Positions 18,654 to 51,745 of a DNA stretch of 64,000 nt are shown here, in pieces (position 1 is the stretch's first letter; the number at the start of each line of letters is the position of its first letter). A program made the translations under genes and the position numbers. The DNA is taken from IMG/VR virus record IMGVR_UViG_3300028738_000008; one strand, given 5' to 3'. The notes beneath the pieces are model-generated. The model saw only the letters and a program-made list of their open reading frames with translations, was not told the origin of the DNA and did not search any database. The DNA is from a virus (lineage: Duplodnaviria; Caudoviricetes).

Positions 18654-18827
18654 ATGAATGAACAATTAAAAATTGGCGACGTGGTTGATTTAAAATCAGG
18701 AGGCCCACGAATGACATTAGGTACTTTCCAGAGCAATGGAAAATGGCTTGCGCAGTGGTTTACTGGTGAAGAACTGAGACATGGCGAATTCCGTACTGAG
18801 CAAATCGAATTGTCAAAAGACGAATAA
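18654..18827 (+). CDS. YodC/DUF2158 family small protein (not in ORF track)
   Basis: MNEQLKIGDVVDLKSGGPRMTLG...QWF. Confidence 0.85.
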   Translation: MNEQLKIGDVVDLKSGGPRMTLGTFQSNGKWLAQWFTGEELRHGEFRTEQIELSKDE

Positions 18828-18838
18828 TCAATGATTTC

Positions 18839-18886
18839 GTTTCACAATTCATGAAATAATTTACAGAATTTCATGAATTGTGAAAC
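18839..18886. repeat. 19-bp perfect inverted repeat
   Basis: gtttcacaattcatgaaat-N10-atttcatgaattgtgaaac. Confidence 0.85.
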
Positions 18887-18911
18887 TTTTTCAAAATATT
18901 TTGTATTTATA

Positions 18912-18942
18912 TTTGCAAGTTACAAATTAATGATTACCTTTG
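18912..18942 (+). promoter_or_regulatory. Bacteroidota-type promoter of tRNA operon 1
   Basis: TTTG-N19-TACCTTTG; TATTTATA at 18904-18911. Confidence 0.8.
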
Positions 18943-18971
18943 TACCGAAATAAAATTTTAAGAAATATACA

Positions 18972-19043
18972 ATGAGAACAATTTTTAACATAGTACCGCA
19001 GCATCAACCACAACCCTTGAAGTATCTTCAATCGAATGGCTGA
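18972..19043 (+). CDS. Leader peptide 1 (MRTIFNIVPQHQPQPLKYLQSNG)
   Basis: PQHQPQP run upstream of a terminator and Pro/His/Gln tRNAs. Confidence 0.85.
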   Translation: MRTIFNIVPQHQPQPLKYLQSNG

Positions 19044-19071
19044 ACTATGTAAAAAATAAACATACATAATG

Positions 19072-19108
19072 ATCCCCTTTAATTGAAAGATTAAAGGGGA
19101 TTTTTTTT
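19072..19108 (+). terminator. Attenuator terminator 1
   Basis: atcccctttaat-tgaaag-attaaaggggat plus T-tract. Confidence 0.9.
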
Positions 19109-19110
19109 AT

Positions 19111-19195
19111 CTAGGCGTAGCCCTGTAGTTGGTAGCAGTCCTGATTTGGGATCAGGCGTGGTAACACCTCGTGAGTTCGACCCTCACCGCTTAGA
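19111..19195 (+). tRNA. trnP: tRNA-Pro(TGG), long variable arm
   Basis: cctga-tttggga-tcagg; C1-G72, A73; 14-nt variable region. Confidence 0.85.
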
Positions 19196-19205
19196 CAAAA
19201 TTTAT

Positions 19206-19282
19206 CTGGGAGTTATGCAGAGGCAATACAACGGTATTTTGGAAATATCGGCTCGTGAGTTCGATTCTCACCTCTCAGACCA
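19206..19282 (+). tRNA. trnP: tRNA-Pro(TGG)
   Basis: ggtat-tttggaa-atatc; CCA encoded. Confidence 0.85.
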
Positions 19283-19310
19283 CTGATTATCAGTTCTTTG
19301 AATAATTTAT

Positions 19311-19383
19311 AGAGTAGTATATCAATTGGCAGATTACCGCATTCGGGATGCGGAGGCTCTGGATTCGAGTTCCAGTTACTCTA
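19311..19383 (+). tRNA. trnP: tRNA-Pro(CGG)
   Basis: ccgca-ttcggga-tgcgg. Confidence 0.85.
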
Positions 19384-19393
19384 CTGATTAGAT

Positions 19394-19467
19394 GGTGTCT
19401 ATAGTGCAATTGGTAGCATGACAGATTGTGGTTCTGTTGATGACAGGTTCGAACCCTGCTAGACACA
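19394..19467 (+). tRNA. trnH: tRNA-His(GTG)
   Basis: acaga-ttgtggt-tctgt; G-1 present. Confidence 0.9.
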
Positions 19468-19495
19468 CTAAATGCGAATTGCATTTTATTAAAAT

Positions 19496-19570
19496 GGTGA
19501 TTGTAGCTTAAACGGATAAAGCGCATGCCTGTGAAGCATGTATATGCGAGATCGTACCTCGTCTTTCACC
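19496..19570 (+). tRNA. trnH: tRNA-His(GTG), atypical T-loop and two acceptor mismatches
   Basis: catgc-ctgtgaa-gcatg; T-loop atcgtac. Confidence 0.65.
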
Positions 19571-19590
19571 CTAATTTTAAATTAAAGATC

Positions 19591-20355
19591 ATGTATTACG
19601 TTGTACAGAAGAATGTTTTTAGGGAAGAAAATTACGATAATTTGATTATCGCTTTGAATCGGTTGGAGTTGCCATATGAGATCGTTGATGTATTACCTTT
19701 TGTAGACACCTTCGAATTCAAGACAACCAGAAAGGATGTTTTTCCTTTCGGAGCTGTTAAAATGTCAAGAATTGCCAAAGAATTGGACTGGAATCCAGGC
19801 TCTCAATTATGTGACAATCATGACTATAACGTATATAGTAAGTATTATAAAGAAAACTTGCTGAACTACGATTCAAGGATTATCAGGTTTGGCGATGATT
19901 TCTTTCAAACAGAAAGGTTCTTTGCACGTCCGACATTGGATACTAAAGTGTTTACTGGTCATGTGTTTGACATGGGCGAATGGATTAAGTTCAGAGACGA
20001 ATCCATTGTCAATGGACATAGCACTTTACTGAACACAGATACTGAAATTCAGATTTCTTCTGTAAAAAATATACAGAAAGAAATAAGGTTTTGGATTGTG
20101 AAAGGCGAAATCGCCACAGCAAGTCAGTATTCTCTGGGTGGAAGATTCTGTGTGAATGAAAACGTCGATCAGTCGGCATATGACTTCGTAAACAGAATGA
20201 TTAAGATATTCGAATTGAATGATACCTTTATTATAGATGCATGCCTTGTTAAAGGCGAATACAAAATAGTTGAATGCGGTTGCACAAACAGTGCTGGCTT
20301 CTATCGAGCAGATATGCAAAAGCTGCTTATGAAATTGGAAGACGCTTTCAATTAA
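19591..20355 (+). CDS. ATP-grasp domain protein (DUF4343/R2K-like)
   Basis: FARP..DTKVFTG, EIRFWIVKG.I...SQY, FIIDA..., KIVECGCTNSAGFY; start revised to the ATG at 19591. Confidence 0.8.
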   Translation: MYYVVQKNVFREENYDNLIIALNRLELPYEIVDVLPFVDTFEFKTTRKDVFPFGAVKMSRIAKELDWNPGSQLCDNHDYNVYSKYYKENLLNYDSRIIRFGDDFFQTERFFARPTLDTKVFTGHVFDMGEWIKFRDESIVNGHSTLLNTDTEIQISSVKNIQKEIRFWIVKGEIATASQYSLGGRFCVNENVDQSAYDFVNRMIKIFELNDTFIIDACLVKGEYKIVECGCTNSAGFYRADMQKLLMKLEDAFN

Positions 20356-20362
20356 TATAAAT

Positions 20363-20438
20363 TGCCTTATGGTGTAATTGGCAACACACCTGATTCTGAT
20401 TCAGTTGAGTGAAGGTTCGAGTCCTTCTAAGGCATCCA
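20363..20438 (+). tRNA. trnQ: tRNA-Gln(CTG)
   Basis: Loop ttctgat; CCA encoded. Confidence 0.9.
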
Positions 20439-20445
20439 ACTATAT

Positions 20446-20517
20446 TGCCCTGTTATGTAATGGCTAGCATACGACACTTTGACTGTCGGAGTTACGGTTC
20501 GAATCCGTACAGGGCAA
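20446..20517 (+). tRNA. trnQ: tRNA-Gln(TTG)
   Basis: cgaca-ctttgac-tgtcg. Confidence 0.9.
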
Positions 20518-20603
20518 CAAAATTTAACGATATATTAGCGTTATTTAGAATCATTTTTTTTACATAATGTGCATATTTTTACTATTTATAGGTAAAATAT
20601 ACC

Positions 20604-22695: not shown

Positions 22696-22739
22696 GTTTA
22701 TGTACGTTATTTGACATGTTGGGTTATAAAATTAAAATT

Positions 22740-22973: not shown

Positions 22974-23046
22974 GCTCGGTTCATCTAACTGGTTAGGATA
23001 GGTGACCTTCAATCATCCAATACGGATTCAAGTTCCGTACCGAGTA
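22974..23046 (+). tRNA. trnE: tRNA-Glu(TTC)
   Basis: ggtga-ccttcaa-tcatc. Confidence 0.8.
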
Positions 23047-23696: not shown

Positions 23697-23786
23697 ACGT
23701 CTATGTCCGAGTGGCTTAAGGAACTGGTCTCCAAAACCAGCGTGGGTGACACCATATCCAAGGTTCGAATCCTTGTTGGCGTGCCA
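23697..23786 (+). tRNA. trnW: tRNA-Trp(CCA) with class II (Ser-like) body
   Basis: ctggt-ctccaaa-accag; 18-nt variable region; G73; CCA encoded. Confidence 0.8.
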
Positions 23787-28720: not shown

Positions 28721-28792
28721 GCTCCTATAGCTTAATGGTAAAGCCTTCGACCTTTAATCGAATGACCCCTGAATCAGTATCAGGTGGGAGCA
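28721..28792 (+). tRNA. trnK: tRNA-Lys(TTT), atypical T-loop
   Basis: ttcga-cctttaa-tcgaa; T-loop atcagta. Confidence 0.7.
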
Positions 28793-40931: not shown

Positions 40932-41021
40932 TGCGAGTTAGAGAAGTCAGGCCTATCTCACCAGTCTCATAAGCTGGAGTACCGTTTAAAAGTATCGTTG
41001 GTTCGAATCCAGCACTCGCTT
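40932..41021 (+). tRNA. trnM: tRNA-Met(CAT), initiator-like 1:72 mismatch, long variable arm
   Basis: ccagt-ctcataa-gctgg; T1:T72. Confidence 0.75.
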
Positions 41022-41035
41022 CATTAAAAACACAC

Positions 41036-43142: not shown

Positions 43143-43218
43143 GGAGGCGTATCACAACAATCTTCTAAATTGTTTTAGTGTAATTGGACTGATGTGGGTT
43201 CGACTCCCATCGCCTCTT
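43143..43218 (+). tRNA. trnR: tRNA-Arg(TCT)-like, D-armless with D-like hairpin in the variable region
   Basis: aacaat-cttctaa-attgtt; agt-gtaattgg-act; gtggg-ttcgact-cccat. Confidence 0.7.
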
Positions 43219-46944: not shown

Positions 46945-47035
46945 GGATAGATGCCAGAGTCTGGTTTATCGGGACAACCTGCTAAGTTGTTGTACGGCGA
47001 AAGTCGTGCCGAGGGTTCGAATCCCTCTCTATCCG
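46945..47035 (+). tRNA. trnS: tRNA-Ser(GCT)
   Basis: acaac-ctgctaa-gttgt; long variable arm; own host-type promoter near 46906-46938. Confidence 0.92.
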
Positions 47036-47044
47036 CATAAATGA

Positions 47045-51388: not shown

Positions 51389-51745
51389 ATGGATATTGAT
51401 TTAAATGATACTTATTGGGATAGAGTGGTTGGCATTGTCACCGAACTTCGTGTTGATGCACGATGGATACTAAGACAGAACGGTAGCGAGAAACCATATG
51501 GCTCATTGCGAATAGTTTCGCACCCAGACCTTAAAGCAGGTTATCTACGTGCAGTCTTCACCTATGTTGAAGATGTTAGGCAAAAATCCAAAGGCGAGAA
51601 GATACAAACTATTGAAGACTATCAAATTGATAAGTCTGAGCTTGAAATATATTCCGTCGATGAAGCAATAAAAACAAAAAGCGTCACATATGAAGCTCCA
51701 TATCAAGAGCTTAACAAAAAATTCGGCGTAAATATTTTCGAATAA
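51389..51745 (+). CDS. Hypothetical protein
   Basis: 118 aa ORF after a host-type promoter. Confidence 0.7.
   Translation: MDIDLNDTYWDRVVGIVTELRVDARWILRQNGSEKPYGSLRIVSHPDLKAGYLRAVFTYVEDVRQKSKGEKIQTIEDYQIDKSELEIYSVDEAIKTKSVTYEAPYQELNKKFGVNIFE

Follow-up and report, generated by a model that had tools for sequence, protein, structure and literature searches.

What might a phage gain from a short open reading frame (ORF), crowded with codons for proline, histidine and glutamine, that lies directly ahead of tRNA genes for the same three amino acids? The question is raised by positions 18,972 to 19,108 of a 64,000-nucleotide (nt) stretch of virus record IMGVR_UViG_3300028738_000008 in IMG/VR (Duplodnaviria; Caudoviricetes), and this whole stretch is called the window below. 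The locus, which we call unit 1, begins with a leader ORF of 23 codons on the plus strand (18972–19043; ATG at 18972, TGA at 19041–19043), and codons 9–15 of this ORF encode the run PQHQPQP (CCG CAG CAT CAA CCA CAA CCC; 18996–19016). An intrinsic terminator (19071–19108, plus strand) follows 27 nt past the leader stop codon, with a 14-base-pair stem at 19071–19102 (−18.0 kcal/mol) and eight T at 19101–19108. Its T-run ends 2 nt ahead of the first tRNA gene at 19111. The genes that would be regulated occupy 19111–20518 on the same strand and comprise tRNA-Pro(TGG) twice, Pro(CGG), His(GTG) twice, an ATP-grasp (R2K) ORF, Gln(CTG) and Gln(TTG). Since only 2 nt separate the terminator from tRNA-Pro, no promoter fits between them and the polymerase must cross the terminator to reach this gene. 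Based on these features and on those of its relatives, we propose that unit 1 is probably a ribosome-mediated (leader-peptide) transcription attenuator of the phage Pro/His/Gln tRNA operon. A Pro/His/Gln-sensing attenuator had already been suggested here by a first-pass annotation made from the letters alone, and the architecture and the relatives strongly support it; the regulation itself, that is leader translation, stalling and read-through, is what we infer.

The evidence that carries this reading is the match between the leader peptide and the tRNA set. Of all residues encoded by the 38 long ORFs here, 7.1% were proline, histidine or glutamine. Seven consecutive ones would then arise with a probability of about 9e-9 per position, and when all six frames of the window were scanned (about 128,000 positions), PQHQPQP was the sole run of at least seven such residues. 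The whole leader was enriched for the amino acids of its own tRNA set (binomial p = 7.5e-5). The tRNA genes of the window (33 by ARAGORN and a few more by Rfam only, all on the plus strand) form four groups, each preceded by a block resembling a Bacteroidota-type promoter (TTTG, about 19 nt, TAnnTTTG). The three other groups belong to units that share with unit 1 the order of promoter, ORF, terminator and tRNAs. In leader 2 the residues L, A, V, D, E and W abound, and the tRNAs behind it are those for Asp, Glu, Val, Leu, Ala and Trp; here an uncalled gene at 22974 proved to be a tRNA-Glu, which matches the GAA codon of the leader. Lys and Tyr tRNAs follow leader 3, in which K and Y are abundant. 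Leader 4 has an abundance of I, S, T, G, N, M, R, C and F, and exactly these amino acids are represented among its downstream tRNAs. For each of the four leaders, the highest enrichment over background was for the amino-acid set of its own operon, and the four units combined cover all 20 amino acids.

Relatives of the operon were located with the embedded ATP-grasp ORF as probe, which led to three lineages: G001 (95% identity), G002/G006 with G003/G004 (about 65%), and G005/L137/L138 (46%). G001, an IMG/VR fragment of 148 kb with an estimated completeness of 45%, is the closest public relative of the window, and G005 is a 425-kb contig that is 97% complete. In all three lineages a leader and a terminator lie ahead of the tRNA array, and this design is kept in G001, G002/G006, G003/G004, L153 and G005. 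The Pro/His/Gln leaders of the relatives carry the runs PQHQPQQ, PQPQQHPQ, PQQHPQ and PQPQQHPP, and every substitution or indel inside these runs remains P, H or Q. Where the operon differs, the leader differs with it. In the counterpart array of G005 every tRNA is for Gln or Leu, and the leader ahead of it carries the run LLQQLQLLQL; a further unit of G005 has a leader rich in M, K and R ahead of Met, Lys and Arg tRNAs, and the leader of another contains each of Y, T, P, A, S, C, H, G, V and R ahead of those ten tRNA kinds. Over the three lineages, the leader contained every amino acid of the downstream tRNA set in 14 of 14 units, with enrichment p values from 2e-7 to 4e-2. The upper end of this range belongs to leader 2 of G001 (L151 6218–6352), in which a 14-codon insertion past the N-terminal motif, made up mostly of amino acids outside the tRNA set, lowers the enrichment (p = 0.04). 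Leader composition that co-varies with operon content is, as read from these sequences, the strongest evidence that ORF and tRNAs are functionally tied. We also observed in G005 (L147, reverse strand) a Glu/Asp/Val/Phe/Ile/Asn/Trp array for which the terminator-and-ORF finder detected no leader in the region inspected; this array may share a transcript with genes further upstream, or it may have a unit outside that region. From these comparisons we regard the sensor part of unit 1 as secure.

The second part of an attenuator is the switch. To follow it, the nascent leader was folded up to the terminator loop, and the ribosome was represented by a mask extending at most 14 nt past the first base of the P-site codon. 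A strand complementary to the 5' arm of the terminator was found at the 3' end of the ORF in 15 of 15 units. In each of them a ribosome within the regulatory run left this strand free, and one anywhere between the end of the run and the stop codon masked it. In unit 1 P-site codons 7–15 were permissive, and the regulatory run is codons 9–15. The candidate 5' strand of the antiterminator (region 2, 19024–19039, plus strand) lies within the last six codons of the ORF, and the candidate 3' strand (region 3, 19075–19091, plus strand) consists of part of the terminator 5' arm, the loop and the first two bases of the 3' arm. The best antiterminator joined UUCAAUCGAAUGG (19027–19039) with CCCUUUAAUUGAA (19075–19087) in 11 pairs with two mismatches, capped by an AT-rich spacer hairpin, TATGTA/TACATA (19046–19068, plus strand). 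The codons of the run, the hairpin arms and the pairing described in the first-pass annotation were all recovered at their coordinates from the sequence and the ORF listing. Its proposed contact of ATCTTCAAT (19024–19032) with ATTGAAAGAT (19082–19091), with one bulged A, does form, but it is only the upper part of a longer helix; alone it amounts to −4.1 kcal/mol, and the 19027–19039/19075–19087 helix extends into the terminator 5' arm.

The Pro/His/Gln and Gln/Leu units (n = 5) were aligned, and as their terminators are out of register across lineages, the helices were compared lineage by lineage. Among the orthologs (G002 and G003) the equivalent antiterminators, GAAUGGGG with CCCCAUUC, reached −14.8 kcal/mol (equalled by 8 of 1000 shuffles) and −18.0 kcal/mol (2 of 1000). 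The antiterminators of most other units were also clear against shuffles. In the lineage of the window the shared GAATGG has been retained and now stands opposite CCCUUU, not CCCCAUUC, while an adjacent pairing of UUCAAU with AUUGAA has been gained. Between the window and G001, the substitutions from the start codon to the base of the terminator were confined to 19001–19026 plus one in a loop; the strands of region 2:3 and the terminator stem were identical, while the 5' untranslated region and the hairpin loop varied. One paired change in G001, G to A and C to U, retains the candidate anti-antiterminator hairpin upstream (the 1:2 hairpin; its closing G:C becomes A:U) and alters the peptide (Y to S, L to F). 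Statistically, neither the antiterminator nor the 1:2 hairpin of unit 1 stands out from chance in this lineage; what supports them is where they lie, their retention in the nearest relative and the strong counterparts in the orthologs. We consider the switch part of unit 1 plausible but weak.

On the proposed model, host RNA polymerase would start near 18947 at a Bacteroidota-type promoter (18912–18942, plus strand; TTTG at 18912–18915, a 19-nt spacer and TAccTTTG at 18935–18942), and a ribosome would translate the 23-codon leader co-transcriptionally. With ample Pro-, His- and Gln-tRNAs the ribosome would reach the stop codon and mask 19024–19039; with this strand masked, the terminator at 19071–19108 would fold, transcription would stop 2 nt ahead of tRNA-Pro and little phage tRNA would be made. 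If any of these aminoacyl-tRNAs were scarce, because host tRNAs fall short of phage demand, because tRNAs are lost or cleaved, or through starvation, the ribosome would stall in PQHQPQP. The stalled ribosome would cover the 5' half of the 1:2 hairpin and leave 19027–19039 free to pair with 19075–19087; this pairing would delay the folding of the terminator, and the polymerase would enter the tRNA genes. The outcome would be a negative feedback of tRNA supply on tRNA synthesis.

Several results weigh against this model. The antiterminator of unit 1 is worth −6.9 kcal/mol as a duplex and −9.4 kcal/mol as a stem-loop, against −18.0 kcal/mol for the terminator, and it was equalled by 126 of 1000 dinucleotide shuffles and by 5 of 11 unrelated ORF ends. 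It had been called the weakest antiterminator of the four in the window, and so it is, the other three ranging from −10.1 to −16.5 kcal/mol. Considering this weakness, unit 1 may have only a small dynamic range. The candidate 1:2 hairpin, TTGAAG (19017–19022) with CTTCAA (19026–19031) around a 3-nt loop (19017–19031, plus strand), is present as had been noted, but at chance level: it is weak in the window (−2.6 kcal/mol) and in G001 (−0.9 kcal/mol), and a perfect hairpin of at least 6 base pairs occurred in 16% of 72-nt segments of this DNA. In the equilibrium folds the terminator formed at every ribosome position in all four units, so that regulation would have to be kinetic, as in the classical attenuators. 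Unit 1 was identical among contigs from four peat runs, which offered no variants and added no covariation. The host, its polymerase and the coupling of transcription with translation we infer from the promoter motif only. Finally, the leader does contain codons for all five downstream anticodons (TGG, CGG, GTG, CTG and TTG), as had been pointed out, but this is expected from its amino acids. When synonymous codons were drawn from the phage's own usage, such complete coverage was reached by unit 1 with P = 0.14, and over all four units coverage was as high in 48% of the resampling trials. The leader of G001 has no CAG codon though its tRNA-Gln(CTG) is retained. Tuning of the leader to anticodons at the codon level was therefore discarded as a signal. 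The signal in the match between leaders and tRNAs sits at the level of the amino acid.

The rival explanation that survives best is that unit 1 is a decayed attenuator, in which the antiterminator has eroded in the lineage of the window and the terminator acts as a constant damper with a fixed, unregulated read-through. An antiterminator that is at chance level here and strong in the orthologs is what such a decay would leave, and the shared GAATGG that faces CCCUUU instead of CCCCAUUC points the same way. The run, the region-2 strand and the terminator, however, are identical or constrained against G001 while the 5' untranslated region and the hairpin loop vary, and the new adjacent pairing of UUCAAU with AUUGAA lengthens the helix. 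The ratio of antiterminator to terminator energy, about 0.5, moreover resembles that quoted for the trp leader of Escherichia coli. We hold decay to be rather unlikely.

A second possibility concerns the sign or the nature of the signal: completed translation might promote read-through, or a protein or tRNA might bind the leader RNA in the manner of a T-box. Nothing direct speaks for either, and the further pairing of 18981–18994 with 19044–19057 shows only that other structures exist. This pairing appeared in the ribosome-free fold, in which region 2 was in the 1:2 hairpin and the terminator formed. Its 5' strand covers codons 4–8, including the conserved AACATAG, and its partner is ACTATGT with an A-run just past the stop codon. 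The CATAG/CTATG pair recurs at equivalent sites in the Pro/His/Gln leaders of G002 and G003 and imperfectly in G005, with no covariation; the helix may close the leader and limit re-initiation. Another candidate contact, of CCCTT (19014–19018) with AAGGG of the terminator 3' arm, was rejected, the former reading CAATT in G001. Against the opposite polarity, the sole strand able to compete with the terminator would be hidden under a ribosome that has reached the stop codon. As for another signal, neither a T-box nor any other Rfam leader family reached threshold and no specifier-like element was seen; in the window only tRNA reached the Rfam gathering score, and the sub-threshold matches in 18850–19320 included no T-box. 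A different polarity or signal is accordingly quite improbable.

Less probable still, and in our judgment very improbable, is that the 23-residue peptide is an independent micro-protein with its own function, the hairpin being simply the terminator of its gene and the tRNAs being expressed otherwise. An N-terminal motif, M-R/K-x-x-x-N-I, is indeed kept across most units, being common to unit 2 of the window and to the Pro/His/Gln, Gln/Leu and unit-2-type leaders of the relatives. However, outside the run the peptide changes freely between close relatives (Y to S, L to F) while base pairs are kept, in every unit its composition tracks the tRNAs that the operon holds, and there is no room for a promoter between the terminator and the tRNA. 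That the ORF arose by accident in an AT-rich spacer, small ORFs and weak hairpins being common in this DNA, is practically negligible given a run probability of about 9e-9 per position with a single occurrence in the window and a design that recurs in 14 units of three lineages with composition tracking the tRNA sets.

The attenuator reading has counterparts among known systems. Leader-peptide attenuators govern biosynthetic operons, for example through trpL, hisL, leuL and pheL, and the thrL and ilvL (ilvGMEDA) leaders of enterobacteria are multivalent. As in the trp, his, leu and phe attenuators, unit 1 has a short leader ORF with a run of regulatory codons and a terminator before the first regulated gene, and its candidate competing strand is placed for masking at the stop codon and for release upon stalling; as in the thr and ilv attenuators, it would sense several amino acids together. 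In contrast to the biosynthetic attenuators, it would regulate tRNAs and an ATP-grasp ORF, not genes for making or charging the sensed amino acid, and its output would feed back on the sensed molecule itself, tRNA. It also differs in being phage-borne, in having a Bacteroidota-type promoter and no Shine-Dalgarno sequence, and in matching no Rfam leader family. The pheM leader of E. coli pheST, the operon of phenylalanyl-tRNA synthetase, is an attenuator that acts on a component of translation through decoding of the cognate codon. It is, however, cellular, senses one amino acid and targets a synthetase, whereas unit 1 belongs to a phage, is multivalent and targets tRNA. The T-box riboswitch (RF00230) likewise couples the state of a specific tRNA to terminator read-through, but in it a specifier codon and the T-box sequence contact the uncharged tRNA directly, and no translation is involved.

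A further parallel was found in Caulobacter phage phiCbK (JX100813), in which annotated rho-independent terminators directly abut tRNA blocks. An ORF of this phage with YRQFVRQIQVVRNIR ends about 25 nt ahead of the terminator at 51465, and tRNA-Phe, Val, Ile, Ile, Val, Gln and Gln follow. In the same phage the annotated gene gp083 (L158 2341–2570; 45 amino acids, with much S, L, P and K) stops short of an annotated terminator that is followed by tRNA-Pro, Lys, Leu and Ser, and the ORF that stops short of the terminator of the Phe/Val/Ile/Gln block (L158 3950–4303) has much Y, R, Q, F, V, I and N. The genome paper of phiCbK does not mention attenuation. Compared with the source of the window, phiCbK is an unrelated phage with a different host phylum and G+C content, and there is no sequence similarity between the two. 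The same logic in a clade of peat megaphages (Bacteroidota-type) and in phiCbK would imply either convergence or an old and widespread principle.

The surroundings of unit 1 were also inspected. Upstream lies a gene with a Pfam match to DUF2158 (18654–18827), and 3' of it a terminator-like hairpin with a stem of about 17 base pairs and a T-run was read from the sequence (18840–18891, plus strand). With this hairpin behind the upstream gene and the promoter following at 18912–18942, unit 1 is a separate transcription unit. The promoter is labelled according to the Bacteroides consensus. Its motif TTACYTTTGYACC is exact at 18934, 22508 and 28534, has one mismatch at 37871 and is kept in G001, so that the same promoter block stands upstream of all four leaders of the window. 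The leader ATG at 18972 lies about 25 nt past the predicted start site, and the 5' leader is A/U-rich and unstructured. A minus-strand gene at 18927–19067 was considered and rejected, being truncated in G001 and broken by stop codons in G002. The first tRNA gene, tRNA-Pro(TGG) at 19111, was called by ARAGORN and scored 35 bits with Rfam in a local search; its extra arm is long, and the Rfam scan of the whole window missed it. The ATP-grasp (R2K clade) ORF (19525–20355, with a start probably near 19592) lies between the His and Gln tRNAs and keeps this position in the three phage lineages at 46–95% identity.

Some observations concern the sister units and the tRNA genes themselves. Leader 4 (37936–38130) probably begins at an internal ATG at 37984 (MKRNIS...), past an A-rich stretch; this start restores the shared N-terminal motif and places the promoter block about 100 nt upstream. 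An identical 12-mer, TTGACATGTTGG, was found at 22711–22722 in unit 2 and 38215–38226 in unit 4, in each case past the terminator and ahead of the first tRNA. It is kept in G001 (L001 about 832–843 and L005 about 1848–1859) and is absent from units 1 and 3. In unit 2 it resembles a sigma-70 −35 box with TAAAAT 16 nt further on, and in unit 4 the spacing is unfit; the 12-mer may act as an additional promoter or as a signal for processing. The first gene past the terminator of unit 3 (28721–28792) is tRNA-like, with 53.5 bits from Rfam and no ARAGORN call; by eye, its anticodon loop reads CCTTTAA (anticodon TTT, with C as base 33) and the T-loop looks unusual. Further on (29362–29770), an ORF of 79 codons is followed by a terminator (29623–29656) and a tRNA with the amber-suppressor anticodon CTA, in an order identical to that of G001; the composition of this ORF is not leader-like. 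Many of the phage tRNAs are 82–92 nt long (19111–19196, 19206–19282, 23697–23786, 40932–41022 and 46945–47036 were noted), and the tRNA at 43143–43218 was called only with a 10-nt intron.

Metagenomes and databases were also searched. The stretch was present only in peat metagenomes, many of them and all of DNA, and no RNA run was among the matches. Unit 1 is also borne by a metagenome contig of 328.5 kb, from which we take the source phage to measure about 330 kb. A BLAST comparison of unit 1 and its region with GenBank phages gave tRNA and chance matches only and no annotated close relative, and the 971-amino-acid upstream protein, used as a probe, found no relatives. A pattern scan of metagenomes returned only two relevant loci, a copy of the G001 type and one new variant of the G002 type. 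The N-terminal leader motif was also scanned over viral contigs, and the 120 matches, nearly all due to chance, were not used.

As far as we found, attenuation by leader peptides has been described for amino-acid and synthetase genes and not for tRNA genes; no description of leader-peptide control of tRNA genes was found in the literature searched, which lay outside the older subscription literature. Small ORFs may have been noted in the tRNA region of phage T5 in papers of the 1980s. Unit 1 is a real member of a conserved and apparently undescribed class, that of probable leader-peptide attenuators of phage tRNA operons. Extending this from unit 1 to the whole, we think it fairly likely, with a little less assurance, that in large phages with a full tRNA set four multivalent attenuators share the 20 amino acids among them and turn on their tRNA operons upon stalling. 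Unit 1 bears on the regulation of phage tRNA genes and on the reason for their presence in phages. If the proposal is true, the speed of decoding would feed back directly on tRNA supply, and the leader peptides would be a readable label of the tRNAs that an operon should supply. The answer of phage tRNAs to depletion, be it from a mismatch of codon usage, host shut-off or anticodon nucleases, would become directly testable with reporters, and compact, amino-acid-specific sensors of translation would become available for synthetic biology. For the phage itself, such units would be a built-in sensor of and remedy for tRNA depletion, including depletion by the anticodon nucleases of its host.
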